A stretch of DNA of 64,000 nt from a virus (IMGVR_UViG_3300025617_000977:7807-71806), one strand, 5' to 3'; shown: positions 7,231-59,614, numbered from the stretch's first letter. Numbers and translations are program-made. Notes: generated from the sequence alone by a model not told the origin.

Positions 7231-7264
7231 TGTGGTACGTTGGGATTTAACCAAAGAAGGTTGA

Positions 7265-7496: not shown

Positions 7497-7515
7497 ATAA
7501 AAAACATCAGGAGAA

Positions 7516-8808: not shown

Positions 8809-8816
8809 ATAGTTGT
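8806..8816 (+). promoter_or_regulatory. late-type promoter TAAATA-N5-ATG (leaderless)
   Basis: GATAAATAGTTGT immediately before ATG 8817; no SD. Confidence 0.65.
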
Positions 8817-14385: not shown

Positions 14386-14397
14386 ATTGTGTATAAT
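14369..14397 (+). promoter_or_regulatory. consensus sigma70 promoter for queD
   Basis: TTGACA-N17-TATAAT overlapping the end of the upstream CDS. Confidence 0.85.
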
Positions 14398-14466
14398 ATA
14401 CACTAATAACATAGGACTTAGCGTCAACCCTTCTAATTCTGCCGCTGTTATATATAGGAGATAAAA

Positions 14467-18232: not shown

Positions 18233-18294
18233 ATTCATATTTATGTAATTACATTCGGTTTACAAAATATATAATAAATACAATGAGAGGTACA

Positions 18295-30324: not shown

Positions 30325-30337
30325 GATAAATATTAGT

Positions 30338-34453: not shown

Positions 34454-34975
34454 ATGCTTATGAAAACTGACGAACTCGGTATCCCACGGTTTACAAACAA
34501 AGACTTAATCGATATGATCTATTCAGGTCATGCGGATAAGGTGCATGTGGTGTTGTGCGATGCTAACGATGATGTAGACAAGTTCAACGCCGCTATGGAA
34601 GAACAAGGTCTAGACAAACTACAAAAATATATTCCACTAGATGTAGACCAAAAGACTTTTGACGGTGTATGTCAAGGTGAATGGTTTATGCCTGATGAAT
34701 ACAAGACACTAAACGTACACAACTATATTCTAACAAAATGCAACACACAAGAAGAAACAGCAAGATGTGCTGAAGAACTTGCTGAGTTTGAAGGCAGAGG
34801 TATGATGTCTTTACTACAGTATATGATCTATCTTGTAGACTTTATGCGTGAGAATGGGATTGTATGGGGTGTAGGACGTGGTTCAAGTGTAGCAAGTTAT
34901 GTGCTGTATTTGATAGGCGTACACAAGGTTAATTCAATCCAGTATGACCTGGATTGGAGAGAGTTCCTGAGATAA
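34454..34975 (+). CDS. stand-alone fragment of DNA polymerase III alpha (DnaE-like)
   Basis: R..EEL, GVGRGSSVASYVLYLIGV and L.W.EFL match the DnaE GxGRGS region; stops before the DxD catalytic motif. Confidence 0.8.
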   Translation: MLMKTDELGIPRFTNKDLIDMIYSGHADKVHVVLCDANDDVDKFNAAMEEQGLDKLQKYIPLDVDQKTFDGVCQGEWFMPDEYKTLNVHNYILTKCNTQEETARCAEELAEFEGRGMMSLLQYMIYLVDFMRENGIVWGVGRGSSVASYVLYLIGVHKVNSIQYDLDWREFLR

Positions 34976-38251: not shown

Positions 38252-38564
38252 AGCAAGTCACATCTTGCTGTCTCATGCAGGATCAACAGCAACAACTAAT
38301 CAGAGACCAGAACCTGCCGCACAGCAAGAAGCACATAATGTGATTATGGATATTGCAGAAGGTCTATTATCATTTGAACAAGCCGCTAAAGAATTTAGTG
38401 CTTGTAGAGTTACTGCCGCAAGAGGTGGAGATGTAGGCTGGTTTGACTTTCCGGGAGAAATGGAATACGAGTTTGCACATGCTGTTAGCCTTATGCAAAA
38501 AGACACCATCGGACCGCCAATTAAAACTGAGTTTGGCTGGCATGTAATTTTAAGGACCGGTTAA
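38232..38564 (+). CDS. parvulin-type peptidyl-prolyl isomerase
   Basis: [31 protein letters not shown]; start at ATG 38232 after GGGAG. Confidence 0.88.
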
Positions 38565-39133
38565 TGGATTACTTTCATGTGCATAACGGGACTTCGTGTG
38601 AACCTTGTGATATTACACAGGTAACATACGGTAGAGGAGATGTATTAAATCCTATTCTTGAAAATAAGATACGTAACATAGGTGACGTAATTAAACATGC
38701 AAGCAATGTGAAAGCAGACATGACTGATTTCCATATGCAACATGATCCAGACTTTAAGAAAATTTGCGATTTTGCAATTATGCAAATAATTAATAGTGTC
38801 GAAGGACTTAATCAACGCGGAGCAGAAATGTTACGGTTTGATATTATCGATTGTTGGGGAATGGTATACAAAGGTGGGCAAGGACATCATACACAAGAAC
38901 ATGCTCATTGGCCTTCTACATTTAGTTTTTGTTATTATGTAAATGCTTGTGAAGAATGTGCGCCTCTTCGATTTACTAAAGCAAACTACGAAGTTAACCC
39001 ACGTAGCGGACTAATGGTGATTTTTCCCGGAAATGTAAGCCATTCAGTACCAAATCAATATTGTACACATGACCGTGTTGCAATATCAGGAAATATAAGC
39101 GTCATAGTAAAGAAACCAGGAGAATTAAAATGA
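38564..39133 (+). CDS. 2OG-Fe(II) oxygenase
   Basis: HAH, SFCYY, VIFPGNVSH, RVAISGN. Confidence 0.8.
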   Translation: MDYFHVHNGTSCEPCDITQVTYGRGDVLNPILENKIRNIGDVIKHASNVKADMTDFHMQHDPDFKKICDFAIMQIINSVEGLNQRGAEMLRFDIIDCWGMVYKGGQGHHTQEHAHWPSTFSFCYYVNACEECAPLRFTKANYEVNPRSGLMVIFPGNVSHSVPNQYCTHDRVAISGNISVIVKKPGELK

Positions 39134-45353: not shown

Positions 45354-46184
45354 ATGGACTACTATTCTATATTAGGCGTTTCAAAAAATGCTACAGAAAA
45401 AGATCTAAAAAAAGCATACAAAACACAAAGTATGCAACATCACCCCGACCGTGGCGGTGATGAAGAAAAGTTTAAGCAGATTAACGAAGCGTATACTACG
45501 CTAAAAGATCCCCAAAAGAAAGCCATGTACGATCAGTACGGAACGGCTGATCCTCAACAACATCACCAACAGCAAGGATTTCATCAAGGATTTAATCCCC
45601 AAAATATGGAAGATATCTTTGGTTCGTTTTTTGGGCAAGGATTTCAACAAAACCAAAGAAGGCAACGTATGCAAAATGCAGACGTAACTATTCAATGTGA
45701 CATTACTCTTGAAGAAGTATATAACGGTAAAGGTGTTATTGCAACATTTAGAACAAGGTCAGGCAGAGAACAAACTGTAAACATTGACATTCCAAAAGGT
45801 TCCAGACACGGCGACACTATCCGTTACCAGGGGCTAGGTGATGATAGTATTCCTGGGTTACCAAAGGGAAACTTGAATGTTAGAATTCGCATACTACGAC
45901 ATCCAATTTATTCAGTTGATGGATTTAACTTACATGCCGAAGTTAAAATTAATGTATTCGATTTAATGCTAGGAACAGCCACAACTTTAAATATCCCCAG
46001 CGGCCGAGCAATAAGTATAAACATACCACAAGGCACCCAGCCAGGAACTGTAATGAGTATAAATGGAAAAGGTTTACCAGATTACAATACTGGACGTTCA
46101 GGCAATATTTACTTAAAAATACAAGGCGAGATTCCAAAGGATCTTACCCAAGACAAACTTGAACAAATTAGGAAAATTAAATGA
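45354..46184 (+). CDS. DnaJ-class chaperone (type II, no zinc finger)
   Basis: DYYSILGV, HPD motif, G/F-rich linker, C-terminal substrate-binding domain. Confidence 0.92.
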   Translation: MDYYSILGVSKNATEKDLKKAYKTQSMQHHPDRGGDEEKFKQINEAYTTLKDPQKKAMYDQYGTADPQQHHQQQGFHQGFNPQNMEDIFGSFFGQGFQQNQRRQRMQNADVTIQCDITLEEVYNGKGVIATFRTRSGREQTVNIDIPKGSRHGDTIRYQGLGDDSIPGLPKGNLNVRIRILRHPIYSVDGFNLHAEVKINVFDLMLGTATTLNIPSGRAISINIPQGTQPGTVMSINGKGLPDYNTGRSGNIYLKIQGEIPKDLTQDKLEQIRKIK

Positions 46185-46702
46185 AACTAGTATATCACCC
46201 AAGCGAATGGTTAGACAAAGAAGTTGATGCATTTAACTTTGACAGTATGGATGCTAAACAAATTGAAAAAGACATGATTGAAATCATGCAAAAACAAAAC
46301 GGTGTCGGATTAAGTGCTAATCAAGTAGGACTTAATGCTAGAATTTTTGTAATGGAGCCAGATGGACTAGAAGGTTACGATGAACCTTTCGCAATCATTA
46401 ATCCTGTCGTTGAAGCAGTAGTAGACGAGCAGGTAGTAGGAGAAGAAGGCTGTTTAAGTTATCCCGGACTATTCTTTAAAGTAACTCGTGCTAAGGCTTT
46501 GGTGGCAAAGTTTCTTGACAGTAGTGCTAAAGAGTGTACAATAGAGTTTATAGGCTGGAATGCTAGAATCTTTCAACACGAGTTTGATCACTTATTAGGA
46601 ATTAATTACACTGACAGAGTAAGTAAACTTAAACTTGATATGGCAAAGAAAAAGCAACAGAAGTTATTAAAAAAATATAAGGAAATTTTAACAAATGGTT
46701 GA
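46181..46702 (+). CDS. def: peptide deformylase
   Basis: GVGLSANQ, EGCLS, QHEFDH. Confidence 0.95.
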   Translation: MKLVYHPSEWLDKEVDAFNFDSMDAKQIEKDMIEIMQKQNGVGLSANQVGLNARIFVMEPDGLEGYDEPFAIINPVVEAVVDEQVVGEEGCLSYPGLFFKVTRAKALVAKFLDSSAKECTIEFIGWNARIFQHEFDHLLGINYTDRVSKLKLDMAKKKQQKLLKKYKEILTNG

Positions 46703-48947
46703 ACCAAGCGACGAACTACAAGCAGTTTTTGATAAATCAGTTAATGATGCTCGAAAACTAAACCACGAATATGTTACACTTGAACATGTGTTGTATGCAA
46801 TGTTGTGTTCAGACAAGTTTGCAAGTTTGGTTACTGGCACAGGTGCAGATCCAGAATTCATTAAAAAGAATATCGAAAACTATCTTAAAAATGATCTAGA
46901 CGATATTACTATGCCGGTCGAAACTGAAGGTAAAAAGTTTAAACCTAAAAAAACTGCAACAGTTGAGCGTGTACTAAACAGAGCGTTTACACAAGTATTG
47001 TTTAACGGCCGTCAGCATATTGAAGTAACTGATGTATTTCTAAGCATTCTAAGCGAAAAGAAATCTTGGTCATACTATCATATCCAAAAAGCAGGTATTA
47101 CTAAAGAATCATTTGCTGAATATCTAAGCAACGAAGTTGAAGATGCATTTGAAGATGAAGAAATGCGTTCGTTAGGACAAAAAGCATTACGTGAATATAC
47201 AACTGATCTTAATTCAGAAGTACAAAAAAATAATGTTGATCCTGTAATTGGTCGTAGCGAAGAATTAGAAACGATTGCTCTTGCATTAGGTCGACGTGCT
47301 AAAAACAATTGCCTACTAGTAGGTGATCCAGGCGTAGGTAAAACTGCTATTGCAGAAGGACTTGCATGGAATATTGTAAATGGTAAAGTTCCAGAGTTTT
47401 TAAAAGAATATAAAGTATATAATCTAGATATTAGTGCTATGCTTGCAGGTTCAAAATATCGAGGTGACTTTGAAGAACGTTTCAAACTTGTCATGGCTGG
47501 TATTAAAAAGCAAGGCAAAACCATTATGTTTATTGACGAAGCACATATGATGAATGGTGCTGGCGCAGGTGGCAGTGGTAACTCAAACGATCTTGCTAAC
47601 ATGCTTAAACCTGCTCTTACCAAAGGCAACATTAAAGTTGTAGCATCAACTACTTGGGAAGAATATCGCAAGTACTTTGAAAAGGATCGTGCATTAATGC
47701 GTCGATTCCAGCGTGTTACAGTTGACGAGCCAAGTGCAGAAGTATCAAAAGAAATCCTAACCGGTATTAAAAAGTACTACGAGGAATTCCACAACACTAC
47801 TATTACTGACGATGCTATTGATACAGCAATTAAACTTAGTGTCAAGTATCAAGCAGATAAGAAACTACCAGATAAGGCCATTGACCTATTAGATCTTGCG
47901 TGTTCTCGTTTTAATCTAAAAGACGTTGAAGGTGATAAAATTGTAGACAAAGAAGAGGTACAATTTGAAATTGCTAAAGTTGTTAATCTTCCGCCTGAAC
48001 AAGTGCAACAAAAAGAAACTAGCAACCTTGCAAGCCTTGAAGGCAATCTAAAGAAAGTTGTATTTGGTCAAGACAAAGCAATCGATGACATTGTTGATAA
48101 AATCCTTGTTGCGCAAGCAGGTCTTAAGCCTGATAACAAGCCAGTAGGTAGTTTTGTGTTTATGGGTCCAACAGGTGTTGGTAAAACTGAAACAGCAAAA
48201 CAATTAAGTAGTCAACTAGGTGTAAAACTTGTGCGTTTTGATATGAGCGAATATCAAGAGAAGCATAGTGTTGCTAAACTAATTGGTTCGCCTCCAGGAT
48301 ATGTAGGCTTCGAAGACAATGCTGGATTGCTAATTACAAAGTTACAGGAACATCCTAATTGTGTACTGCTACTTGATGAGATTGAAAAAGCACATCCAGA
48401 TGTTTCACAGATCCTATTGCAACTTATGGACAACGGTAAAATTACAGGATCAAATGGCAAAGAAGCCGACGGTAAGAACTGTGTATTAATTCTTACTACT
48501 AACTTAGGTGCTAGTGAAGCAGAGAAAAATACAATTGGGTTTGAGGACGAATGGTCAGAGGATTATGAAGACACTGAACTTAAAAAGTTCTTTGCACCAG
48601 AGTTCCGCAATAGACTTGACGGGGTTGTAACATTTGGTAATCTTGAAAAGAATACTATGATTAAAATTGTTGGTAAGTTCCTTGTAGAACTTAAAGACAT
48701 GCTTAAAGAACAAAATGTTACTGTAGAAATTACTGACGATGCTATTGATTATCTAGTTGAAACAGGATTTGACCGCAAAATGGGTGCAAGGCCGCTACAA
48801 CGTGTAATTGATAAAGAAATCAAACGTGACCTAAGTAAAGTTATGCTGTTTGGAGATCTTAAAGATGGTGGGCATTTGAGTATTGACGTAAAGGATAAGA
48901 AAATTATTCTTAATACTGATACAGTCACAGAACCAGTAATGGCATAG
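46695..48947 (+). CDS. clpA: ClpA-like AAA+ unfoldase
   Basis: Clp N-domain, two Walker A motifs (GDPGVGKT, GPTGVGKT), KYRGDFEER, PPGYVG, IGF loop, GARPL. Confidence 0.92.
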   Translation: MVEPSDELQAVFDKSVNDARKLNHEYVTLEHVLYAMLCSDKFASLVTGTGADPEFIKKNIENYLKNDLDDITMPVETEGKKFKPKKTATVERVLNRAFTQVLFNGRQHIEVTDVFLSILSEKKSWSYYHIQKAGITKESFAEYLSNEVEDAFEDEEMRSLGQKALREYTTDLNSEVQKNNVDPVIGRSEELETIALALGRRAKNNCLLVGDPGVGKTAIAEGLAWNIVNGKVPEFLKEYKVYNLDISAMLAGSKYRGDFEERFKLVMAGIKKQGKTIMFIDEAHMMNGAGAGGSGNSNDLANMLKPALTKGNIKVVASTTWEEYRKYFEKDRALMRRFQRVTVDEPSAEVSKEILTGIKKYYEEFHNTTITDDAIDTAIKLSVKYQADKKLPDKAIDLLDLACSRFNLKDVEGDKIVDKEEVQFEIAKVVNLPPEQVQQKETSNLASLEGNLKKVVFGQDKAIDDIVDKILVAQAGLKPDNKPVGSFVFMGPTGVGKTETAKQLSSQLGVKLVRFDMSEYQEKHSVAKLIGSPPGYVGFEDNAGLLITKLQEHPNCVLLLDEIEKAHPDVSQILLQLMDNGKITGSNGKEADGKNCVLILTTNLGASEAEKNTIGFEDEWSEDYEDTELKKFFAPEFRNRLDGVVTFGNLEKNTMIKIVGKFLVELKDMLKEQNVTVEITDDAIDYLVETGFDRKMGARPLQRVIDKEIKRDLSKVMLFGDLKDGGHLSIDVKDKKIILNTDTVTEPVMA

Positions 48948-48964
48948 ATCAGATAAATAGTTGT

Positions 48965-49306
48965 ATGCCAAGCAATAGTGAAATAATTTTATCAGCAAAT
49001 ACTCATCCAGGAGACAGTACCGTAGAAACAATTACGGGCGAAAAGTTTAAAGGAGACGGCTACTACGGTCGTGCAGACGGTGTACACACTGTACAATATA
49101 ACTTTGACGGGTTAACTGGAACAATAACTATTCAAGCATCGTTGGCAGTAACACCAACTGATGCTGATTGGTTTGAAGTACATTCTTATACTGCGGCACA
49201 AGAAACTGCAAGTAAATATGCAAACTTTACTGGCAACTTTGTTTGGGTAAGAGCAGTAATTGAATATACTGATGGAACTATTAACAGCATTTTGCTTAAC
49301 CACTAG
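48965..49306 (+). CDS. conserved late (probably virion) protein
   Basis: KGDGYYG..DG.HT, NFTGNFVWVRA; leaderless late motif at 48954. Confidence 0.7.
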   Translation: MPSNSEIILSANTHPGDSTVETITGEKFKGDGYYGRADGVHTVQYNFDGLTGTITIQASLAVTPTDADWFEVHSYTAAQETASKYANFTGNFVWVRAVIEYTDGTINSILLNH

Positions 49307-49314
49307 GAGAAATT

Positions 49315-49581
49315 ATGCATTCTATTACAGTTGTATGGTCAAAAACAGAAGAAGATGTAGATGCTATTGTTGCTGAGAATGTAATTAACAGTTCTTCCAC
49401 TGCATTGCTTGAGTCAGAAACCCATTACGAAATTTACGAATCAGACAAGGGCGAAACCGTCCTTGTTGTAGAAACCCACAAGAAACTAAGCGAACAAGAA
49501 TCGGATGAAGTTGCCGAATCTGTTGCAAATAGGTTGTTTGATTTAGGGTTTGATAAATTCGATATCGAAATCTCTGTATAA
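49315..49581 (+). CDS. acidic hypothetical protein
   Basis: 88 aa, AGGAG SD. Confidence 0.7.
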   Translation: MHSITVVWSKTEEDVDAIVAENVINSSSTALLESETHYEIYESDKGETVLVVETHKKLSEQESDEVAESVANRLFDLGFDKFDIEISV

Positions 49582-49630
49582 CCATTTTGTGATAAATACT
49601 TTATAACAAGATATAAAGGTTAGTACTACC

Positions 49631-50299
49631 ATGAGAAAAACGTTTAAAGATTATCTAGCAGAATCAGACGGATTTGGATCTTCACCTAAACCAACAGTAA
49701 GAAAACCTGTTCGTTATGATCCTGATCAATCAATGCCAAGTATAATGAAATACGCATATCAACCGGATGTAACAAGAGCGTTGAGAAAAGCGGCGGACCT
49801 TTCAGATGATGCGCCTGTTTATTTTGACGATGCAGATCTAGTATATGGTGACGAAACTGTTTGGCCAAGATGCGGAGTAGATGATGACTGTACATTCGGT
49901 GATGCGGTTAAAGCACTTAAAAAGTTTGCAAGCAAAGGTGAAAGTGAAATCGATCGTATTAAAGACCTATCAGGCATCACTGAGCAAACTATTGACGATG
50001 ATGACGATATTCACGAATGGTTTGGTGACATGTACTACAACGATGACGATATTGTAGACGAAGCAGAATATCAAGGACGTAAAGTTAAACTAGGCAAGCC
50101 TATGCAAGGTGATACTAAAAAGTTTAAAGTGTACGTTAAGAATCCAAAGGGCAACGTAGTCAAAGTTAACTTTGGCTCTAAAGAACATAAAATTAAAAAG
50201 TCCAATCCTAAACGTAGAAAGTCGTTTAGAGCAAGACATAACTGTGATAACCCAGGACCGCGTCATAAGGCACGCTATTGGTCATGTAGAAAATGGTAG
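49631..50299 (+). CDS. putative internal head protein (modular)
   Basis: N-terminus MRKTFKDYLAE resembles the T4 capsid-targeting sequence; basic C-terminal EAEYQGRKV...YWSCRKW module. Confidence 0.7.
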   Translation: MRKTFKDYLAESDGFGSSPKPTVRKPVRYDPDQSMPSIMKYAYQPDVTRALRKAADLSDDAPVYFDDADLVYGDETVWPRCGVDDDCTFGDAVKALKKFASKGESEIDRIKDLSGITEQTIDDDDDIHEWFGDMYYNDDDIVDEAEYQGRKVKLGKPMQGDTKKFKVYVKNPKGNVVKVNFGSKEHKIKKSNPKRRKSFRARHNCDNPGPRHKARYWSCRKW

Positions 50300-50305
50300 A
50301 CAAAT

Positions 50306-50644
50306 ATGAAATTTGATGATATAATAGATAGTAACAATGCTGACAACAGACCTAACTTTAATGTTGAAGACGATCTTCAATGTTTTATGAAGGATGATAC
50401 TATGTTTTATAGAAAAGAGTATTATCCTACAATGACTAAGTGTCAGGACTGTTATAACAAAGGCGATGCTAACAAAGGATTTAGTTTTATTCTACCAATG
50501 ATTGACAAAGGTGTTAATAGATATATTAAAACGTTTGACTTGCCATACGAAGCAAACGAATTATGCACACCAGATGAACGCAAAACACTTGCTCAAAAAA
50601 TATATGACAGTGAAGTAGAGTCGTTTAAGGAAGGCGAGTACTAA
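50306..50644 (+). CDS. hypothetical late protein
   Basis: 112 aa; DDL..FM.DD..FYRK.YYP. Confidence 0.7.
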   Translation: MKFDDIIDSNNADNRPNFNVEDDLQCFMKDDTMFYRKEYYPTMTKCQDCYNKGDANKGFSFILPMIDKGVNRYIKTFDLPYEANELCTPDERKTLAQKIYDSEVESFKEGEY

Positions 50645-51597
50645 TGCGTTTAAGACAAATATTTGAAGCACCAGGAAAAGAAGTTAGTTTTGCATTAGGC
50701 AGACTTAATCCAGCAACTAAAGGACACGGTCTCCTTGTTGAAGCACTTAAACAAGGACCTGGCGATTCGATTTTGTTTTTAACTGACCGGATTGCAAAAT
50801 TACCAAGTGATCCGCTTCAAGCAAACGAAAAACTAGAATGGGCAAAGAAAAGTTTTCCAGATATTAACATCGAACTTGCTAAAAATATTATGTTTGCCGC
50901 TGTTGAACTTTACAAAAGAGGTTATACTGATGTAACATTTTTTGAAGGTGAAGACAAACTAGGAAAATTATTAGAAAAATACAACGGTGTTGATTCAACA
51001 CACGGTATGTTTAAATTTAATTCAATCAATTTTCAACGTCTAAAGCGCAATCCAGATGCTGATGATGCTTCGGGAATGAGTGCTAGTAAACTAAGACAAT
51101 TTGTAATTGACGACGACTTTAAATCTTTCCAAGAAGGCGTTACAAAGCCTGCACAGCCTTATGCACAAAAAATGTTTGACACGCTAAAAAGCAGGCTCAG
51201 CAGTACAGAAGAAAATATTGATGAGTGGGTCGGTCCTGCTATTAATGCTTTGAAATATGGTAAACATGCATTTAAAATCGGTAAGTTCTTTTGGAACAAC
51301 AAATGGGCTACAGCATTCCTTATTGGAAGTTGGAAAACTATTGGCTGGATACAAGATGCAATTGACTTTGTTGAGCCGTACTTAGATAATCCAATTGCAA
51401 AAGCATTATTAAAATACGGATTACATGCAATACCAGTAGCAGTAGCAATTTACGGTGGTATAAAGTTGTATAATGCTATTAAAGATACTGATAACGAAGA
51501 GGACTTTAAATCTGCACTTGAGAAGTTTAAAGCAGATGAAAAAGAATTACGTGGGTTAGAGCAAGAACTCATGGACACAATGCCAGGGAAAGCATAA
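50644..51597 (+). CDS. HIGH-class nucleotidyltransferase with amphipathic C-terminal extension
   Basis: GRLNPATKGH (HxGH-like) and MSASKLR (KMSKS-like); N-terminus MRLRQIFE. Confidence 0.78.
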   Translation: MRLRQIFEAPGKEVSFALGRLNPATKGHGLLVEALKQGPGDSILFLTDRIAKLPSDPLQANEKLEWAKKSFPDINIELAKNIMFAAVELYKRGYTDVTFFEGEDKLGKLLEKYNGVDSTHGMFKFNSINFQRLKRNPDADDASGMSASKLRQFVIDDDFKSFQEGVTKPAQPYAQKMFDTLKSRLSSTEENIDEWVGPAINALKYGKHAFKIGKFFWNNKWATAFLIGSWKTIGWIQDAIDFVEPYLDNPIAKALLKYGLHAIPVAVAIYGGIKLYNAIKDTDNEEDFKSALEKFKADEKELRGLEQELMDTMPGKA

Positions 51598-51815
51598 TGG
51601 ATCACGATTTAGATACTCTAAAAAGATTAGCAGGTGTCGGTGAATACGCATTTAAAGGTCTTCAAGCAGTTGAAGAAAATTTATCTATTACCGGAACTGA
51701 AAAAAGACGTATCGAAAAAGAAAAAGGTCTTAGACCTGGTGACCCGGATTGGTTCAAACTATGGTTTGCAAAGCCTCACTTAACTGGTGAGCGCCATTCA
51801 AAGGATGAACGATGA
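51597..51815 (+). CDS. conserved late hypothetical protein
   Basis: LKRLAGV, ITGTEKR, PGDPDWFKLWF. Confidence 0.7.
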   Translation: MDHDLDTLKRLAGVGEYAFKGLQAVEENLSITGTEKRRIEKEKGLRPGDPDWFKLWFAKPHLTGERHSKDER

Positions 51816-53269
51816 AATTTAATGATGTAAAAGATATTAATAAAAAAGTTCCGGTTCCTAGATCATTTAAACATTATCATCAAATGGCTGAAAATGGTGG
51901 ACGCATTGTAAAAGGTGTTAACACAACTCCTGATGTAAGTACTGATGAAATTAAAACCCAAGCCGCAAAGTTTGGCAACAAAGTAGACAAAGATGGACGT
52001 CCGCCCACACTAAGCAAAAAAGTTAAAGGCTCTAAAACAAATGTGCTGTTTAACTTAGGCATGTCCGAAAGCGTCAACGAGTCTAAAGAATTAGCATCAG
52101 CAAGTGAAATTTATGTAGACATGGACGGTGTTCTTGTTGACTTCTTTGGTGAATGGACTAAGATGATGGGTGTTAGTGATTGGAAGCAAATTAAAAATGT
52201 TGATCAAGCACTACAGAAAATTAGAGATAAAGACGACTTTTGGTTATCACTGAAGCCTACTAAGAATGCCGGTAAGTTGTTGTCTATTATTAAAAAAATT
52301 AAAGGCGAATATAATATTTTATCTGCTCCGTTGGCAGGAGATCCTAAAGCAGAACCTCACAAACGTGAATGGATTTCAAAATACTTAAAAGCGTTTCCAC
52401 CTAAAAACGTTATCATTACAGCAGACAAACAAAAATATGCAACACAAGCAGACGGTACTCCAAACATTTTAATCGATGACTTTGGCCAAAATGTTTCTAA
52501 ATGGGAAGCATCCGGCGGCGTTGGTTTTAAGCATAAAGATCATAAGTTTGAAAGAACTGCTACGCAATTAGCCGATTATATAAGTCCTGAGCGCAATGAA
52601 GAAATTGCAGAAATATTAGGCTTTACTACACGAACTCCAAAACGTGCAACAATAAAAAAGAAGCGTCCACCAGAAGAACTTAGCGTAAAAGACAAAGTAG
52701 CAAAACGTAGAGCAATGGCTGCTAAAGGCAATCCAGATGCTTTTAAATCGGGTGCAGTTAAAGAAGGTGATTTAGTATTAAATCATTCTAAATTACGTTC
52801 TTTTATTATTGATATGATTTCAGATAAAATTAATAAAACTGATGATGTTGAACAACTTTCTAAATGGTTAAAGTTAATCGTAGGAAAAGAAGTTGCACCT
52901 CGAGGTGCTAAGAGTTATACTATTTCTGCAGAGGATGTGGTAGAAGCAATTTCAAAAATACAAAATCGTATATCAGAAGGTGATGCAATACCTAATCCTA
53001 AAAATACATTCCTTACAAAATCAGACACAGCATACGATCATTATAAAGTAGGCACAAACTTAGCAAACTTAAAAAAAGTTCCAAAGGGTGCTAACTATGA
53101 CGAACCGGACATTGTAATTGCTCCATATGCAGGTCAAAAAGAAATGAAATATCTTATGAAGCAACTAAAGCGCATTGGTTACGATGTACAAGATGCGGCT
53201 GGGTATAAAGATGCACATTACGATGAAGATTCTGGAAATGAGTCTAGATATCTTGTTGGGATTAAATAA
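51812..53269 (+). CDS. modular protein with 5'(3')-nucleotidase-like HAD domain
   Basis: IYVDMDGVLVDF, ILSAP, KREW, LIDD, W...GG; flanked by short basic modules. Confidence 0.8.
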   Translation: MKFNDVKDINKKVPVPRSFKHYHQMAENGGRIVKGVNTTPDVSTDEIKTQAAKFGNKVDKDGRPPTLSKKVKGSKTNVLFNLGMSESVNESKELASASEIYVDMDGVLVDFFGEWTKMMGVSDWKQIKNVDQALQKIRDKDDFWLSLKPTKNAGKLLSIIKKIKGEYNILSAPLAGDPKAEPHKREWISKYLKAFPPKNVIITADKQKYATQADGTPNILIDDFGQNVSKWEASGGVGFKHKDHKFERTATQLADYISPERNEEIAEILGFTTRTPKRATIKKKRPPEELSVKDKVAKRRAMAAKGNPDAFKSGAVKEGDLVLNHSKLRSFIIDMISDKINKTDDVEQLSKWLKLIVGKEVAPRGAKSYTISAEDVVEAISKIQNRISEGDAIPNPKNTFLTKSDTAYDHYKVGTNLANLKKVPKGANYDEPDIVIAPYAGQKEMKYLMKQLKRIGYDVQDAAGYKDAHYDEDSGNESRYLVGIK

Positions 53270-53469
53270 TGCTGATATTTGAGATTACTGAAAACTTTGC
53301 TGACGGTAAGAAAAAAGGCAAAAGCCGTCCAGGTAGAGTAAAGAAGTCAGGTGCTAGTTGCAATGGATCAGTTACAGCACTACGTAAACGTGCTAAGAAC
53401 GCAAGCGGTGAGAAGGCTAAAATGTATCACTGGTGTGCTAATATGAAGTCAGGTAAGAAGAAGAAATAA
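53269..53469 (+). CDS. small basic putative internal head protein
   Basis: MLIFEITE then NFADGKKKGKSRPGR...HWCANMKSG. Confidence 0.7.
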   Translation: MLIFEITENFADGKKKGKSRPGRVKKSGASCNGSVTALRKRAKNASGEKAKMYHWCANMKSGKKKK

Positions 53470-53615
53470 TGGATATAGAACATTACGTTAAAAAGTATAA
53501 AGAACACGAAGAACGTAAAGCAACTACTAATGAACGTAATGACTATTGGAAGCAATATTCCAAAAAACAACTAGATCCTGAAACAAGTTTTGATATGGGA
53601 AAATACTCCTCGTAG
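53469..53615 (+). CDS. small hypothetical protein (48 aa, below ORF-track cutoff)
   Basis: Manual translation MDIEHYVKKYKEHEERKATTNERNDYW...; TAATG overlap. Confidence 0.5.
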   Translation: MDIEHYVKKYKEHEERKATTNERNDYWKQYSKKQLDPETSFDMGKYSS

Positions 53616-53641
53616 ACACAGGAAAAAAGGTAAATAGTAGT

Positions 53642-54472
53642 ATGAAACTTAGAGAACTTACAGAATCAACAACAGTAACCGAAAATCCTTTAGCAGGTGC
53701 TCAACCAGCGGCAGGAGGTGCTCAACCAGCGGACGCAGATGCAAAACAAGCGGCTCAGAAGACAAGTATGGGTGCAAAACAAGCGGCGACTGCGATGGGT
53801 GCTAAAGGCGGATCAGGCGCAATGATGCAAAAAGGATTAGATAAACTTTCAGCAGGTGGCGCAATGACTGGAGAACTTTCTAAACAAATTGCTCCATTTG
53901 CAAAGCAATTAAGTACTATTCTAGGTAATCAACAACTAAAACAAAAGTTTTTAGCACTTGTTAAGCAGGCAGAACAAGGCGGAGCAAATCAACCGGCTCC
54001 AGAATCATCTAACTATACACCAACAAGAGACGAGGATGATTATAATGCTAAACAAAAAGCATTGCAGGATATTCAAAAAGATCCGGAGACATCAAAAGAT
54101 CCAGAACTTAAAAAAGAACTGATGAAGCGTAAAGCATCATTAGAAAAAGACAAGCCAGTAGACGAAGCAGACAGTATTATGCAATTAGCAAAATTAGTGG
54201 CTGGAGCATCAAACACACAGCAAACTCAAGCATCAGATTTTGCTAACGAAATGAAAGCACTTGCTGGTATTACAACAGAAACGGCAACAGCCGGAGCAAC
54301 TTCATCAGGTAACATTGCATCTGTTGCAAACCCGAGCATGGCGTACGGACAAAGAGGCAAAGACTCGAAAGGGTTGCCTAAGGCGCCACAAAAGAAAAAT
54401 AAAGACGGCACAGCCAAGAATGCGTTAGATATTGATAACGGCTTAATGGGCGGGAAAACAATTAAAAGGTAA
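53642..54472 (+). CDS. putative internal head/core protein
   Basis: MKLRELTE N-terminus; Ala/Gln-rich; ETATAGATSSGNIA module; leaderless late motif. Confidence 0.7.
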   Translation: MKLRELTESTTVTENPLAGAQPAAGGAQPADADAKQAAQKTSMGAKQAATAMGAKGGSGAMMQKGLDKLSAGGAMTGELSKQIAPFAKQLSTILGNQQLKQKFLALVKQAEQGGANQPAPESSNYTPTRDEDDYNAKQKALQDIQKDPETSKDPELKKELMKRKASLEKDKPVDEADSIMQLAKLVAGASNTQQTQASDFANEMKALAGITTETATAGATSSGNIASVANPSMAYGQRGKDSKGLPKAPQKKNKDGTAKNALDIDNGLMGGKTIKR

Positions 54473-54477
54473 TCATT

Positions 54478-55272
54478 ATGAGAGAAAAACATTTAAAAGA
54501 AGATTTAGCAGACTTGGCGTATAAAGCAGAAAGCGATCACGAAGTACAGATGGCTCGTGCAGAGTTATATAAGATTGCAAAGTATGCTATTAAGATGCAT
54601 GATATGCTTAAAGGTGTTGAAGAACGCGAAGGACTTGAAGGTTGGGTGCAATCTAAAATTACTAAAGCCGCAGACTATATGGGCAGTGTTTATCACCACA
54701 TGGACTACGAACAAAAGTTTGACGAAGTCCAAGAAGCAAAGAAAGCAAAGCCAGACTTCCTCGATGTTGACAAAGATGGTGACAAGAAAGAGCCTATGAA
54801 AAAGGCTATTAAAGATAAAAAGTCAAAGCAAACAGACGAACAGTATGTACATGAAAGAGGCAGTAAGAAGAAAAAGAAAACTAACGAAGAAGCCCGTGAT
54901 ACTCATTGTTCAGACAAATGCTGTGGCGCAGATGTTAAAAGAGAAGATTGCAAATGTTCACCAGATTGCAAACATTGTAATTGTAATGCAACTAACGTAG
55001 ACGAAGGCAAGTACAAGAACGATGCACAGCGTAAAGCAGTACATGCTTCTAAAGCAAAAAAAGACAAGTACAAAGAATCGTTTGCAAATAAATTAGCAAA
55101 CAAACTTGCAGAATCAAAAGGTTTATGTTCAGAGTGCGGCAACCCAAGTTACACTACACTCCCAGAAGAAAAGCAAAAAGGCGTTGACGGCAAAGTATGC
55201 TGGAAAGGCTACAAGCGCATGGGCACCAAGAAAAAAGGTGGCAAGACAGTAGACAACTGTGTAAAAATGTAA
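54478..55272 (+). CDS. putative internal head protein (modular, Lys/Cys-rich)
   Basis: DHEVQMAR...WVQSKITKA, KPDFLDVDKDGDKKEPM, Cys-rich segment, CWKGYK...VDNCVK modules. Confidence 0.72.
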   Translation: MREKHLKEDLADLAYKAESDHEVQMARAELYKIAKYAIKMHDMLKGVEEREGLEGWVQSKITKAADYMGSVYHHMDYEQKFDEVQEAKKAKPDFLDVDKDGDKKEPMKKAIKDKKSKQTDEQYVHERGSKKKKKTNEEARDTHCSDKCCGADVKREDCKCSPDCKHCNCNATNVDEGKYKNDAQRKAVHASKAKKDKYKESFANKLANKLAESKGLCSECGNPSYTTLPEEKQKGVDGKVCWKGYKRMGTKKKGGKTVDNCVKM

Positions 55273-55295
55273 TTCCAATTACTAAAGAATATTTC

Positions 55296-55323
55296 AAATA
55301 GCACCTACGGGTGCTATTTTTTT
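55296..55323 (+). terminator. Rho-independent terminator
   Basis: AAATAGCACC-TACG-GGTGCTATTT followed by a T run; cUACGg tetraloop. Confidence 0.88.
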
Positions 55324-55338
55324 GACTCACTATACCAC

Positions 55339-55367
55339 TTGACTTTTACTCCGTCCGACTATATAAT
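55339..55367 (+). promoter_or_regulatory. sigma70 promoter of the replication operon
   Basis: TTGACT-N17-TATAAT. Confidence 0.8.
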
Positions 55368-55397
55368 ATAACAATACTAACATAACAGGAGTAATAT

Positions 55398-55658
55398 ATG
55401 TCTAGCAGAACTTATGGTGCCGACGAAAAAGCAAAACTAGAACGTTTGGTTAACGAAGGCGCAACTGTTTTACGGGAAATTGAAGATCTACAAGAAGGTC
55501 TCAGAGAAACCGTAAAAGCAGTATCACAAGAACTTGATATCAAAACAAGTTTAATTAACAAAGCAATCAAAGTTGCACACAAAGCAGATTGGCACAAAGT
55601 TGCTGATGAATTTGACGATCTTGAAACACTTGTTGTTACAGTTGGCAAAGACAAATAA
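55398..55658 (+). CDS. small dsDNA-binding protein (T4 DsbA/GapR-like)
   Basis: 86 aa helical pattern EIEDLQEGLRETVKAVSQELDIK; AGGAG SD. Confidence 0.65.
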   Translation: MSSRTYGADEKAKLERLVNEGATVLREIEDLQEGLRETVKAVSQELDIKTSLINKAIKVAHKADWHKVADEFDDLETLVVTVGKDK

Positions 55659-56941: not shown

Positions 56942-59614
56942 TTGAGTTACGTAGACGCATTTTTTGACCGTAATGCTGATCTAATTCGCTGTGTAGAGCG
57001 AAAAGAAGGTAAGCGGACATATTCAGAATACCCAGTAAAATATACATTTTACTATAAAGACCCAAGAGGCAAATACAAAAGCATCTTTGGCGATCCGTTG
57101 AATCGCATTGTGTGTAAGAACACAAAAGACTTTCGTAAAGAACAAGCAATTAATAAAAACAAAGACTTGTTTGAAAGCGATATTAATCCAATCTTCCAAT
57201 GCTTGAGTGAAAACTATCTCAATCATGATGCACCCAATCTAAACATTTGCTTTTTCGATATTGAGACAGACTTTGATCCAGAGCGTGGCTTTGCTGATCC
57301 TAGTGATCCATTTATGCCCATTACTGCTATTACTGTACATCTACAGTGGCTTGATGCACTTGTTACATTAGCACTTCCTCCTAAGACACTTACAATGGAA
57401 CAAGCACAGGAAGAATGTAAAGAATGGGGAGACCAAGTTATCTTGTTTGAAGACGAAGGTAAGATGCTTGATACATTCCTTGATCTAATTCAAGATGCTG
57501 ACATTTTGACAGGTTGGAACAGTGAAGGTTATGATATTCCATATACTGTTAATCGTGTACAACGAGTCCTAAGTAAAGAAGATACAAGACGTTTTTGTCT
57601 TTTCAATCAGTTTCCAAAAAAACGTGAGTATGAAAAGTTTGGGAAACAAGCGGAAACCTATGACCTAATAGGCAGAGTGCATTTAGATTCTTTGGAATTA
57701 TATCGTAAATACACGTATGAAGAAAGACACACTTATCGACTGGATGCCATTGGCGAACTTGAAGTTGGCGAAAACAAAACTGTGTACGAAGGTACGCTCG
57801 ATCAACTTTATAACAATGACTTCAAAACGTTCATCGAGTACAACAGACAAGACGTTGCACTACTGGACAAGTTGGACCAAAAACTAAAGTTTATTGACTT
57901 ATCCAATGAACTTGCTCATGCAAATACTGTTTTGCTACAGACCACTATGGGTGCTGTTGCTGTTACAGAGCAAGCAATTATTAACGAAGCACATCATAGA
58001 GGTATGCAGGTTCCAAATAGAATCCGACGTGAACCAGGCTCAGAACCAGCCGCAGGTGCTTACGTAGCATATCCTAAAGTAGGTGTACATAAGTGGATTG
58101 GTTCAATGGATTTGAACTCACTGTATCCGTCAGTGATTCGTGCATTAAATATGGATCCGGCAACTGTTGTAGGACAACTTCGTCCAGAACTAACAAACAA
58201 ATATGTTGGTGAGCAAATGGGACTAAAGAAAAAGTCTTTTGCGGCGGCATGGGAAGGTAAGTTTGGTACTGACGAGTTTGAGGCAGTTATGGATCAGCGT
58301 CGAGATGTAAGTATTACAGTTGATTGGGAAAATGGTCAATCAGATGTAATGAGTGGCGCACAGATCTACAAAGTAATTTACGATAGCAATCAGCCTTGGA
58401 TGCTTAGTGCTAATGGTACAATCTTTACAACAGAGTTTGAAGGTGTTATTCCTGGACTACTAAAGCGTTGGTACAGCGAACGTAAAGAACTACAAGGTAA
58501 AATGCGTAAAGCAATTGCCGCAGGTAACAAGACAGAGATTGCGTTTTGGGACAAGCGACAGTTGGTTAAGAAGATTAACTTGAACAGTTTGTATGGTGCT
58601 ATTCTTAATCCAGGTTGTAGATTCTTTGACGGTCGTATTGGACAATCAACTACGCTTACTGGTCGTCAGATTGTTAAGCACATGAGTGCAGAAGTAAACA
58701 AAGTTATTACAGGTGAGTACAATCATGTAGGTAAGAGTGTTATTTACGGTGATACTGACTCTGTATACTTTAGTGCATACCCTATATTACGTGCAGAAAT
58801 TAATAACGGTACTATTCCTTGGAGTAAGGACAATGTTATTTCACTGTATGACCAAGTATGCGAATCAGCAAACAAGTCATTTCCAAAGTTTATGAGTGAC
58901 ACATTCCATTGTCCGAATAGCAGAGCAGATGTTATTGCGGCAGGGCGTGAAATTGTTGCTGAGTCAGGATTGTTTATTACTAAGAAGCGTTATGCGGCAC
59001 TGATTTATGACAATGAAGGTCAGCGTATGGATGTAGATGGAAAGCCGGGCAAAGTAAAAGCAATGGGCTTGGATCTTAAACGCAGTGACACTCCAGTGTT
59101 TATGCAAGACTTCCTTAGTGAGATCCTTATTAAAGTATTGCAAGAAGGAGATGAAGAAACTATCCTTGATATGATTGCTGAGTTTAGAAGTGAATTTAAA
59201 TCTCGTCCAGGTTGGGAGAAAGGTTCGCCTAAACGTGCAAACAAGATTGGTCACTATCAGCGACTAGAGCAAAAGCAAGGCAAAGCAAACATGCCCGGAC
59301 ACGTTCGAGCAAGCATTAACTGGAACACACTCAAGCGTATGAACAGTGACAAGTACTCGCAAGAAATTGTAGATGGTATGAAAGTCATTGTTTGTAAACT
59401 AAAACAGAATCCAATGGGCTATACTAGTGTTGCGTATCCTGTGGATGAGATGCATTTGCCGCAATGGTTTAAAGATTTGCCGTTTGACAGTGATGCTATG
59501 GAAGGTACTATTATTGATAACAAATTAGATAACTTAATTGGTGTATTGAAGTATGATTTAGAAAGTACTAAACAAAACAATACATTTAACACTTTGTTTG
59601 ACTTCGGAGATTAA
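56942..59614 (+). CDS. family B DNA polymerase
   Basis: ExoI DIETD, ExoII WNSEGYD, ExoIII YNRQD, DLNSLYPS, KINLNSLYG, YGDTDS, KKRY; TTG start after AAGGAG. Confidence 0.96.
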   Translation: MSYVDAFFDRNADLIRCVERKEGKRTYSEYPVKYTFYYKDPRGKYKSIFGDPLNRIVCKNTKDFRKEQAINKNKDLFESDINPIFQCLSENYLNHDAPNLNICFFDIETDFDPERGFADPSDPFMPITAITVHLQWLDALVTLALPPKTLTMEQAQEECKEWGDQVILFEDEGKMLDTFLDLIQDADILTGWNSEGYDIPYTVNRVQRVLSKEDTRRFCLFNQFPKKREYEKFGKQAETYDLIGRVHLDSLELYRKYTYEERHTYRLDAIGELEVGENKTVYEGTLDQLYNNDFKTFIEYNRQDVALLDKLDQKLKFIDLSNELAHANTVLLQTTMGAVAVTEQAIINEAHHRGMQVPNRIRREPGSEPAAGAYVAYPKVGVHKWIGSMDLNSLYPSVIRALNMDPATVVGQLRPELTNKYVGEQMGLKKKSFAAAWEGKFGTDEFEAVMDQRRDVSITVDWENGQSDVMSGAQIYKVIYDSNQPWMLSANGTIFTTEFEGVIPGLLKRWYSERKELQGKMRKAIAAGNKTEIAFWDKRQLVKKINLNSLYGAILNPGCRFFDGRIGQSTTLTGRQIVKHMSAEVNKVITGEYNHVGKSVIYGDTDSVYFSAYPILRAEINNGTIPWSKDNVISLYDQVCESANKSFPKFMSDTFHCPNSRADVIAAGREIVAESGLFITKKRYAALIYDNEGQRMDVDGKPGKVKAMGLDLKRSDTPVFMQDFLSEILIKVLQEGDEETILDMIAEFRSEFKSRPGWEKGSPKRANKIGHYQRLEQKQGKANMPGHVRASINWNTLKRMNSDKYSQEIVDGMKVIVCKLKQNPMGYTSVAYPVDEMHLPQWFKDLPFDSDAMEGTIIDNKLDNLIGVLKYDLESTKQNNTFNTLFDFGD

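Follow-up and report, generated by a model that had tools for sequence, protein, structure and literature searches.

Putative prohead-targeted, protease-processed internal head polyproteins encoded by a late gene block of a T4-related marine jumbo phage

The internal head proteins of phage T4 are made with short N-terminal propeptides of 10-19 residues, which end in (L/I)-x-E and direct the protein to the core through hydrophobic or aromatic positions. The targeting sequence was given as MKTYQEFIAE (PMC8442874), and it was reported that targeting involves positions 4 and 7 of the leader, whereas cutting involves positions 8 and 10, and that Asp at the last position stops cutting but not targeting (PMC9026906). 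In the sections of this literature that treat it, the T4 family is defined by its leader and not by its mature part. Here, this system and its nearest counterparts are compared with a block of late genes in 64,000 nucleotides of viral DNA (IMGVR_UViG_3300025617_000977:7807-71806, hereafter the window), for which an initial annotation had proposed capsid-targeting leaders and prohead-protease sites joining shuffled modules. This core claim is supported by a gp21-type protease in relatives of the phage, by the pattern of the junctions, by the movement of modules between open reading frames (ORFs) and by homologues among the virion proteins of cyanophages. The block is quite probably a late operon of prohead-targeted, protease-processed internal head (prohead-core) polyproteins. 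Since the mechanism proposed, a targeting leader together with a gp21 cut after (L/I)-x-E, is that of T4, the block would be a variant of the T4 system.

In the proposed mechanism, the precursor would enter the assembling prohead by means of a short T4-type N-terminal targeting leader, a segment of the form L-(K/Q)-x-L-A-G-(I/V) that mimics the C-terminus of the scaffold protein, or both. The gp21-type prohead protease would cut after hydrophobic-x-Glu, both where the leader ends and wherever two modules join. Acidic spacers would be released and probably expelled, and small basic or Cys-rich modules, together with a nucleotidyltransferase and a 5'(3')-deoxyribonucleotidase, would be released, stay with the DNA and probably be ejected with it. 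We infer this cleavage, the retention in the head, the ejection and the payload function from comparison of sequences; a part played by the payload in DNA condensation or anti-defence, as put forward in the initial annotation, would be possible. As cutting would separate the modules, fusing, splitting or re-ordering them would cost nothing, which would explain the rampant shuffling seen among relatives.

The likeness to T4 IPI, IPII, IPIII and Alt, as far as these are described, lies in the short N-terminal leader, which has aromatic or hydrophobic residues and a final (L/I)-x-E, a gp21-family protease in the lineage and (predicted) late expression (PMC9026906, PMC3012670, PMC8442874), and further in basic products, an enzyme predicted to be packaged and a highly variable locus. 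The T4 internal proteins are described as being cut once (PMC8442874), whereas the precursors of the block have 2 to 7 predicted sites and several unrelated modules. Unlike in T4, the modules are shuffled among ORFs, and most leaders have 8 residues (M-x-L-R-E-L-x-E) instead of being the 10-mer; the polyprotein build, the shuffling at predicted cut sites and the apparent imitation of the scaffold tail and of the predicted new N-terminus of the capsid protein also set the block apart. No ORF of the block matched a PHROG internal-protein family at E <= 1e-5, which is an indirect check of homology to IPI, IPII, IPIII or Alt. The T4 core proteins gp22, gp67 and gp68 resemble the block proteins in having several gp21 cuts, acidic fragments that are presumably expelled and, in the ORF at the gene 67 position of relatives, the same type of leader. 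However, they are essential scaffold proteins encoded in the head module, whereas the block lies elsewhere in the genome, encodes enzymes and basic modules and varies in content among close relatives.

For the head proteins of phiKZ-type phages, the fuller form of the cleavage site is S/A/G-x-E. In phiKZ, 201phi2-1 and SPN3US, as in the proposed system, head-internal proteins are reported to be cut by a gp21-related protease after x-x-Glu, sometimes multiply, and some inner-body or ejection proteins of such phages have membrane segments (PMC5694885). According to the same account, P3 is small (AxE, SxE) and the propeptides often exceed 100 residues (PMC5694885), whereas P3 in the block is I/L/V and the leaders have 8-27 residues. 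Shuffling of modules at the sites is not among the features that this account reports for the phiKZ type (PMC5694885). Polyvalent proteins (Iyer et al. 2017) share with the block the presence of unrelated effector domains in one polypeptide, predicted delivery with the DNA, proteolytic release and a recurrent ParB-like domain (PMC5512222). They are described as having 2-15 large domains and embedded peptidases proposed for release (PMC5512222), whereas the modules of the block are 30-190 amino acids (aa) long, no peptidase is embedded and the cutter would be a trans-acting prohead protease. No peptidase, MuF or portal domain was found in the ORFs of the block or in the variants scanned from two relatives, L001 and G006. 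A search confined to open-access text gave no description of this architecture and yielded only papers on T4, SPN3US, P1 and polyvalent proteins.

Relatives were collected with the nucleotidyltransferase ORF, which gave 7 loci, and with the conserved N-terminal module of ORF264, which gave at least 498 confirmed IMG/VR stretches, 80 of which were kept; the lineage is therefore common in marine viromes. The comparisons of junctions and homologues cover 88 loci. Each of the 12 junctions quoted in the initial annotation is present once, although relatives do not share KLAE-S, and at PVDE-A, which they do keep, no module switch is seen. The enrichment in [ILV]xE that had been expected is absent: the block has 15.0 sites per 1000 aa, and elsewhere the figure is 14.0. 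Shuffles of the same composition led to an expectation of 18.3 sites for the block, where 28 were observed, and of 234.7 for the other ORFs, where 261 were observed. The non-random signal is the placement of the sites and not their density. When the distinct upstream 10-mers of 8 module anchors in the 88 loci were clustered into unrelated contexts, P1 was found to be Glu in 63 of 64 contexts (background 6.7%), and P3 was hydrophobic in 44 (background 26%, p = 1e-12) and I/L/V in 38 (background 15%, p = 8e-16). No hydrophobic enrichment was seen at P2, P4, P5 or P6 of these contexts. The six commonest residues at P3 were V, L, I, T, K and M, with no Ser, Ala or Gly among these six. NFADGK alone is preceded by 39 distinct 10-mers, every one of which ends in Glu.

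Two further sets gave a similar pattern. An anchor-free scan, in which a 6-mer had to occur in at least 6 proteins and to follow at least 4 unrelated far-upstream contexts, yielded 27 families, 15 of which have a Glu conserved in at least 75% of contexts and at most 5 residues upstream; in the three families richest in contexts, all contexts are Glu-preceded (22/22, 9/9 and 9/9). When 1.84 billion representative proteins were searched with a profile of the DLADLAY module (the 78-aa module of ORF264), the result was an independent set of 3727 clusters at E <= 0.001 and 1455 at E <= 1e-10. Junctions were counted in the best 150 of 3727 proteins, which contain 148 module starts. Of the 88 starts behind a leader of 6-13 residues, 81 have Glu at P1 and 83 a hydrophobic P3 (L 33, I 31, V 14); of the 60 internal starts, 59 have Glu at P1 and 46 a hydrophobic P3. 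The internal starts fall into 44 contexts, 43 of them with Glu. The Met of a former leader is visible just upstream of 21 of the 60 internal starts, as expected after fusion of a once separate leader-bearing ORF. The starts of gapped BLAST alignments proved too fuzzy for placing junctions and were discarded.

It could be argued that these are ordinary late multidomain proteins, in which Glu and a hydrophobic residue form a linker or domain-capping motif and nothing is cut. Such proteins would be in keeping with the density of [ILV]xE, which is the same as in other genes, with several spacers that are simply Asp/Glu-rich, and with the silence of the virion proteomes, in the passages concerned, on processing of the proteins detected. 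This explanation is nevertheless considered unlikely: Glu at P1 with a hydrophobic P3 precedes at least 8 unrelated modules and also ends leaders that have no upstream domain, the site fits the specificity of the protease family found in the lineage, one junction resembles the predicted maturation site of the capsid protein, and leader variants with Asp for Glu gain a second site.

As for shuffling, which prohead processing of polyproteins would permit, comparison of relatives showed that modules swap between ORFs exactly at the xxE sites. In L001, a ParB-like module (Pfam ParB_N below threshold, 23.9 bits vs a cut-off of 26.3) lies between MRLRELIKITE↓ and ...VQE↓NFADGK (↓, predicted cut), where the window has MLIFEITE↓NFADGK, and whatever module precedes NFADGK in the relatives, ParB-like or not, its last residue is Glu. 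A module of ~70 aa (longest alignment gap 65 aa) that is peculiar to the window separates AVKE↓G from RISE↓G; L001 has SVDE↓G in its place. In L007 and G006, the GDLIPNPK and NFADGK modules are attached to the nucleotidyltransferase ORF (538 and 646 aa), and the TATAG module stands in an ORF of its own with the leader MLIRELFQKDL(G/E)E↓. Identity to L001 is 82-91% for the flanking genes (ClpA-like ATPase, two small ORFs and the next gene), which have no indels, and 27-77% for the ORFs of the block, in which indels reach 126 residues. In the 646-aa nucleotidyltransferase ORF of G006 (L107 10283-12223, minus strand), NFADGKKK was seen twice, each time after Glu and each time before a different module, and hence NFADGK may be a P'-side junction tag rather than part of one module. 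Two sequencing runs, one of DNA and one of an RNA library, contain contigs of related strains that match the window from the start of the AEYQGRKV module (50053-50060) onward and diverge upstream, a break which points to population-level recombination at the module junction.

The five leaders quoted in the initial annotation (MRKTFKDYLAE, MRLRQIFE, MLIFEITE, MKLRELTE and MREKHLKE) are all present. Short leaders that end in hydrophobic-x-Glu before a small or polar residue were counted in 5 of the 9 ORFs of the block and in 4 of 84 other ORFs (Fisher p = 2.6e-4). In the leader of ORF222, the aromatic residues (positions 5 and 8), Leu-9 and Glu-11 are spaced like Y4, F7, I8 and E10 of T4, with one extra residue; the other four have 8 residues and end in hydrophobic-x-Glu. 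Among the matches listed, 119/120 homologues of the nucleotidyltransferase (187-540 aa) have a hydrophobic-x-Glu ending within residues 4-13, and 104/120 start with M-x-L-R-x-hydrophobic. Two leader variants have Asp in place of Glu-8 and carry an extra VIE or VVE five residues later, which fits the finding in T4 that a terminal Asp blocks cutting and not targeting. Identical leaders are encoded by up to 8 different codon strings, which argues for selection on the leader peptide; this variety of synonymous codons ruled out conservation at the nucleotide level, for example for leaderless translation.

Leaders still closer to that of T4 were found in cultured Kyanoviridae, where five of eight of the corresponding enzymes start with M-K-x-(F/Y)-x-x-F-(L/F)-(S/T)-E↓A, namely MKKFSDFLSE↓A, MKRYTNFLSE↓A, MKSFLNFFSE↓A, MKKFSAFLSE↓A and MKNFSSFLTE↓A. 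These have the length of the T4 leader, and position 4 is F or Y, position 7 is F, position 8 is L or F and position 10 is E. Leaders of the T4 type were thus recognized in ORF222, in the four 8-residue cases of the block and in these five cyanophage 10-mers. Outside the block, ORFs with hydrophobic-x-Glu leaders were noticed at window positions 18283-18621 (MRGTMTDIVTITE↓S) and 33654-34220 (MASNIDDVSINE↓S), right behind late-promoter boxes, and because of this position they may encode further processed virion proteins.

Peptidase_S77, the family of T4 gp21, is present in three of the five largest contigs that carry the block, G006, G008 and G009 (92-96 bits vs a cut-off of 27). It was not found in the record of the window or in five smaller related contigs, all of which are fragments, and this result is therefore uninformative. 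In G006, which is 268 kb long and rated 75% complete, the protease matches the PHROG head maturation protease (3e-57), and the order of the head module is portal, 81-aa ORF, 200-aa ORF, acidic 319-aa ORF, protease, scaffold-like protein and major capsid protein, the last of which matches T4 gp23* in the PDB (5.5e-39).

ClpA-type ATPases are not known to cut at defined sites. This bears on the suggestion that the block proteins are processed by some other protease or by self-cleavage, for example with the ClpA-like unfoldase encoded upstream as a helper, and have no link to the head. Immediately before the block, the window as well as L001, L007 and G006 do have genes for a DnaJ-like protein, a peptide deformylase and a ClpA-like protein. 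Still, these chaperone genes precede a separate late-promoter box, no peptidase domain was found in any ORF of the block in Pfam and PHROG scans, and the site matches both the specificity of gp21 and the predicted maturation site of the capsid protein, which makes processing unconnected with the head highly improbable.

The capsid proteins of the relatives show a further link to the block. That of G006 reads ...RKWLNE↓TATAGSTSAGNVATLN (short form WLNE↓TATAGSTSAGNVA), and those of G008 and G009 read ...KRYLAE↓NATAGATSAGNVA and ...RKYLAE↓AATAGASSAGNVA; from the L-x-E motif, the cut is predicted after (W/Y)L(N/A)E. The stretch that follows aligns to residues ~10-25 of mature T4 gp23*, and the predicted cut would therefore lie ~10 residues later than in T4. 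ORF276 of the window reads ...ALAGITTE↓TATAGATSSGNIASVAN, like the capsid sequence after its predicted maturation site, and its TATAG module thus copies that site. The recurrence of the stretch xATAG(A/S)(T/S)SAGNVA, which follows the capsid propeptide, at the start of this small basic module suggests an extended protease recognition element or a capsid-binding arm.

The motif (L/I/M)KxL(A/S)G(I/V), said in the initial annotation to recur in three ORFs, indeed occurs three times in the window, always within the block, vs 0.06 expected from shuffles. The scaffold-like proteins of the lineage end in ...IRRLAGLK, ...LKRLAGLK and ...IRRLAGLN, and the motif (hereafter the LAG motif) is a copy of the C-terminus of the scaffold protein. 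At the C-termini of the scaffold-like protein and of a 610-aa virion-protein homologue in G006, it may be a shared docking signal. In the block proteins of relatives, an x-Glu follows the LAG motif within 3 residues in 34 of 42 distinct contexts, and thus after cutting the motif would also sit at a C-terminus. The recognition of LAG as a scaffold C-terminal motif and of the TATAG module as a copy of the predicted capsid maturation site goes beyond the initial annotation. The 81-aa ORF at the position of T4 gene 67 starts with MILRE(L/F)FYFDK...EPVE↓, which is the leader type of the block; the strict leader pattern is found in 7 of 291 ORFs of G006, three of them in the block and one being this ORF.

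Since cytidylyltransferases are among the cyanophage virion proteins, the proteomes of these phages are relevant to the fate of the products. From purified S-SZBM1 virions, 2 peptides of the cytidylyltransferase gp140 and 4 of the neighbouring gp139 were reported (PMC9146016). S-SZBM1 gp139 carries the CWKGYK module, and gp140 is linked to the window enzyme by annotation, a shared GR(F/L)NP...GH motif and a conserved gene neighbourhood. In S-CREM2 virions, the cytidylyltransferase gp154 (3 peptides) and gp111 (8 peptides) were detected, and the authors go no further than to suggest encapsidation (PMC10665884). BLASTP related gp154 to ORF317 (1e-13) and gp111 to the EF-hand-like module of ORF264 (6e-7), which in gp111 follows VKE↓. 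A 'putative citidylyltransferase', the cyanophage core gene product T4-GC190, was listed for S-SM1 virions (PMC3037559), its likeness to the window enzyme being one of name; the window enzyme has a different leader and different C-terminal modules. Nucleotidyltransferase matches were obtained by tblastn in 485 phage records, and the gene neighbourhoods in HTVC008M and S-SZBM1 resemble the block. The interpretation of the cyanophage cytidylyltransferase in terms of a leader and a cut site does not appear in the passages of these papers on the proteomes and is offered here.

These data also bear on the suggestion that the block encodes prohead-core or scaffold accessories only, which would be cut up like T4 gp22, gp67 and gp68 and expelled before packaging, leaving no payload. 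In its favour, the leader type is common to the ORF at the gene 67 position, the LAG motif is common to the scaffold protein, there are many cut sites per protein, and T4 core proteins are described as degraded (PMC5694885). But folded enzymes (the nucleotidyltransferase, NT5C and, in relatives, the ParB-like module) are a poor fit for disposable scaffold, and cytidylyltransferases are reported in mature virions in three proteomes, with homology checked by BLASTP for S-CREM2. Moreover, the modules that would be released share a strongly basic character with the T4 internal proteins, which remain with the DNA. A purely scaffolding role is hence judged improbable.

In cultured cyanophages, ORFs of 707-724 aa lie between the genes for the small and large terminase subunits. 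One of these, S-SCSM2R_117 (L009 3986-6160; 724 aa), is a long string of the small modules known from the block (DLADLAY-like, Cys-rich and CWKGYK), and S-SZBM1_194 (L010 28253-30376, minus strand) is a basic repetitive string that shares just the QQRFFGMV-type module seen in L001.

Several observations weigh against the reading of the block as prohead-targeted polyproteins. The window's own 71.8-kb record, ~20% of the genome, contains no protease, capsid or scaffold gene, and the protease and head genes are known from relatives only, whose conserved module is ~80% identical. ORF112 and the fused first ORF of L007 and G006 are without a leader. Three of the eight Kyanoviridae enzymes depart from the T4-like 10-mer: that of S-SZBM1 starts with the 9-residue MRFRQFIIE↓A and that of HTVC008M with MKTLKE..., the third, C48C1, being annotated from an internal Met and uninformative. 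The raw density of [ILV]xE in the block equals that of other genes, and P3 is non-hydrophobic in 20 of the 64 contexts and Thr in 14 of the 60 internal DLADLAY junctions. The P1 count is partly circular, because the anchors were picked after the Glu had been seen, which does not apply to the P3 result and the anchor-free scan; the conserved Glu could in principle also be the first residue of each module. Ungapped alignments end at P1, P3 or P1' in 38 of 153 cases vs 18% expected (p = 0.02), which is a weak effect. Finally, the passages of the proteome papers report presence in the virion only, and no N-termini, processing state or packaging mechanism.

If the processing of internal head polyproteins is considered more widely, marine T4-type phages, i.e. 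the jumbo lineage and the Kyanoviridae of cyanophages and pelagiphages, might use a plug-in grammar for head cargo, the locus being a recombining library of injected mini-proteins and enzymes. This proposal is tentative and regarded as possible rather than probable. If it is true, any small ORF would be deliverable once preceded by a hydrophobic-x-Glu site, and tethering would be achieved by imitation, the leader corresponding to the T4 targeting sequence, LAG to the scaffold tail and TATAG to the new N-terminus of the capsid protein. The library would recombine freely because cutting makes the state of fusion irrelevant. The cargo would take effect within the first seconds of infection, host defences and nucleotide pools being possible targets, and it is among co-injected proteins that first-strike counter-defence factors are expected. 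A large and fast-shuffling set of proteins would enter the cell with the DNA, one module family alone comprising 3727 clusters, and the 15-year-old puzzle of the cyanophage virion 'cytidylyltransferase', seen in three studies, would be explained. The leader and the hydrophobic-x-Glu junctions would provide a simple sequence rule for predicting packaged proteins in uncultured phages, and the mimicry of the scaffold tail and the capsid site, if real, would be new information on the recruitment of cargo to large proheads.

The features of the block are collected in Table 1. Of the promoter-terminator arrangement proposed initially, the first promoter stood, with the box at 49591-49598, and so did the terminator, which is the sole terminator-like site on the plus strand within 48900-55450; the second promoter, GGTAAATA, is plausible but weaker than the GATAAATA box. 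Its 5-nucleotide (nt) spacing to the ATG is also that of three canonical copies; the sequence is the same in L001, and in L007 the corresponding module ORFs are preceded by canonical GATAAATA boxes. The box at 48952 is probably where the late block begins. ATAAATA occurs 14 times in the window, vs 24.6 expected by chance; in 12 cases an ORF on the same strand starts no more than 64 nt downstream, one copy overlaps a start codon and one is intragenic. Since the copies cluster before ORF starts despite being rarer than chance, GATAAATA behaves as a real T4-type late-promoter box. It also precedes tail-fibre and virion-protein genes, and late transcription, as for T4-type internal proteins, is accordingly indicated for the block by the box at 49591-49598 that it has in common with them. 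The exact sequence TATAAATA was rejected as the promoter box, as it has 2 matches only, both upstream of other genes, and the box of the lineage is GATAAATA. The GATAAATA or GGTAAATA box stands 5 nt before the ATG at window positions 8804-8816, 30325-30337, 48952-48964 and 53629-53641. With T4-like spacing of the start site, mRNAs from such boxes would be leaderless or nearly so.

Table 1 Predicted features of the late gene block and of head genes in relatives (window positions unless a locus is named; ↓, predicted cut)
Feature	Position	Strand	Remarks
Late-promoter box GATAAATA	48952..48959	+	5 nt before ATG of 113-aa ORF
113-aa ORF	48965..49306	+	Conserved and syntenic in relatives; weak PHROG matches, including a virion structural protein family
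88-aa ORF	49315..49581	+	In L007 and G006 fused in frame, via an acidic spacer, to AEYQGRKV module
Late-promoter box GATAAATA	49591..49598	+	Promoter of the initial annotation; kept upstream of homologous ORF in L001
ORF222 (222 aa)	49631..50299	+	Leader MRKTFKDYLAE↓, residues 1-11
ORF112 (112 aa)	50306..50644	+	Present in all close relatives; no clear leader
ORF317 (317 aa)	50644..51597	+	Leader MRLRQIFE↓, residues 1-8; nucleotidyltransferase domain 9-194; junction ENIDE↓ (E194)
ORF72 (72 aa)	51597..51815	+	Leader MDHDLDTLKRLAGVGE↓ (E16) with LAG motif; second site QAVEE↓ (E27); basic 45-aa module
ORF485 (485 aa)	51812..53269	+	27-aa leader ending HQMAE↓; multi-module
ORF66 (66 aa)	53269..53469	+	Leader MLIFEITE↓, then basic 58-aa NFADGK module, net charge +17
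48-aa ORF	53469..53615	+	Doubtful gene
Variant late-promoter box GGTAAATA	53629..53636	+	One mismatch from box; 5 nt before ATG
ORF276 (276 aa)	53642..54472	+	Leader MKLRELTE↓ (E8), then TVTE↓ (E14)
ORF264 (264 aa)	54478..55272	+	Leader MREKHLKE↓ (E8); 78-aa helical-looking module DLADLAYKAESDHEV... to EVQE↓ (E86)
Intrinsic terminator	55296..55323	+	10-bp stem (55296-55319), 4-nt loop, T run to 55323
Sigma-70-like promoter	55339-55367		After terminator
Major capsid protein, G006	L095 (G006:C1:90001-110000) 7211-8380	minus	~41-residue propeptide ending (W/Y)L(N/A)E
Major capsid protein of lineage	L111 5354-6517		As above
Major capsid protein of lineage	L112 5521-6708		As above
Scaffold-like protein, G006	L095 8391-9494	minus	Ends ...IRRLAGLK (LAG motif)
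610-aa virion-protein homologue, G006	L098 16252-18084	minus	Ends ...RIKSLAGINN

All nine plus-strand ORFs of the block are present in the sequence as described initially, and the two enzymes and the basic, Cys-rich and EF-hand-like modules were likewise recovered, the Cys-rich one having 8 Cys. For the 48-aa ORF, no homologue was found among the other 87 loci. In ORF222, a 107-aa acidic module ends at the LAG-type site IKDLSGITE↓ (E118) and an acidic spacer at IVDE↓ (E144). The C-terminal module, which starts with AEYQGRKV, has 78 aa, a net charge of +21 and an isoelectric point of 10.9, and viral clusters of the ESM Atlas contain it as a protein of its own (68-85 aa), in some cases with DUF5754. 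After E194, ORF317 continues with a 123-aa Trp-rich, moderately hydrophobic module with a borderline hydrophobic segment (Kyte-Doolittle 19-residue mean 1.47), in whose place relatives have other modules. ORF485 comprises a 63-aa basic module (GRIVKGVNTT) that ends at SVNE↓ (E90), the NT5C domain to EIAE↓ (E267), basic linkers ending in PPEE↓ and AVKE↓, the ~70-aa module (319-389) from AVKE↓ to RISE↓, and a 96-aa module from GDAIPNPK. In ORF276, a 161-aa Ala/Gln-rich module extends to PVDE↓ (E175) and a 38-aa segment to the LAG-type site MKALAGITTE↓ (E213), after which comes the basic 63-aa TATAG module starting with TATAGATSSGNIA. ORF264 has, after E86, an EF-hand-like basic module to TNEE↓ (E138), the 8-Cys module to NVDE↓ (E176), a basic module and, after LPEE↓ (E231), the CWKGYK module. 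The predicted products of cutting are thus acidic leaders and spacers, such as a 26-residue spacer with a net charge of -12, and basic modules (AEYQGRKV +21, NFADGK +17, TATAG +7, CWKGYK +9).

Nucleotidyltransferases of the HIGH type have a Rossmann-like fold, an N-terminal (H/T)xGH signature and a C-terminal ISxxxxR-type motif. In residues 9-194 of ORF317, G11, R12, N14, P15, G19 and H20, as well as the stretch MSASKxR, show little or no variation among 23 sequences. An AlphaFold2 model of this domain (mean predicted local distance difference test score 87) matched chains of PPAT, NMNAT and NaMNAT in Foldseek at E ~1e-4, with a best TMq of 0.64 to 2qjo_C (the NMNAT domain of NadM). ORF317 matches the PHROG cytidyltransferase (5.5e-33), and relatives are annotated as cytidylyltransferase or NMNAT-like. 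A sequence search of the PDB with the domain gave no meaningful match, and the isolated domain stayed below the Pfam threshold for CTP_transf_like (19.9 bits vs a cut-off of 21). From the model and the motifs, the domain is predicted to be a HIGH-type nucleotidyltransferase with the cytidylyltransferase/NMNAT/PPAT fold. Residues 91-267 of ORF485 match PF06941 (E = 1e-8, 35.7 bits vs a cut-off of 24.8) and the PHROG 5'-3' deoxyribonucleotidase (3.9e-23), and the sequence YVDMDGV fits the HAD-type DxDxV; this domain is predicted to be an NT5C 5'(3')-deoxyribonucleotidase. It is the sole Pfam match among 14 ORFs in and around the block, nothing being above threshold for the other 13.

The window represents 64 kb of a 71.8-kb virus record, the completeness of which is ~20% by CheckV, and its genes are almost all on the plus strand. 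PHROG matches include a T4-type DNA polymerase, a clamp loader, a GroES-like head-morphogenesis protein and giant tail-fibre proteins, as well as an endolysin, a spanin, PhoH, MazG and thymidylate synthase, and the source is a T4-related marine jumbo phage, known here as a fragment. Its DNA polymerase is nearest to those of T4-related jumbo phages (42-50% identity), namely Sinorhizobium phage Phosso (50%), Agrobacterium phage Atu_ph07 (46%) and a 349-kb Vibrio phage and 121Q-like coliphages (42-43%). With the whole block, blastn against cultured phages found single-module matches only, with coverage <=4%, in Pelagibacter and Synechococcus phages, and hence no close cultured phage at the DNA level. 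By tblastn, ORF66 gave no match in cultured phages, perhaps because its Lys-rich sequence was masked, and ORF264 matched 4 records only. Contigs from three RNA libraries span the block with 0-6 differences; as they give no starts, strand or level and DNA carry-over is possible, they were not counted as expression.

Directly upstream of the block (45354-48947) lie a DnaJ-like ORF, a peptide deformylase gene and an ORF for a 750-aa ClpA/ClpB-like ATPase, an order kept in L001, L007 and G006; the first is taken as DnaJ-like from its N-terminal sequence. A 173-aa ORF (34454-34975) matches DNA-polymerase PHROG families (3.9e-46) and lies ~22 kb from the 890-aa polymerase gene (56942-59614). An ORF of 957 aa at 10231-13104, one of the very few on the minus strand, has no PHROG match and is preceded by a late-promoter box on the same strand, 26 nt upstream. 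At 13744-15621 and 38564-39133, genes for two 2-oxoglutarate-Fe(II) oxygenases, a QueD-like enzyme and a glycosyltransferase are found near nucleotide-metabolism genes and may have a role in the modification of DNA or nucleotides.

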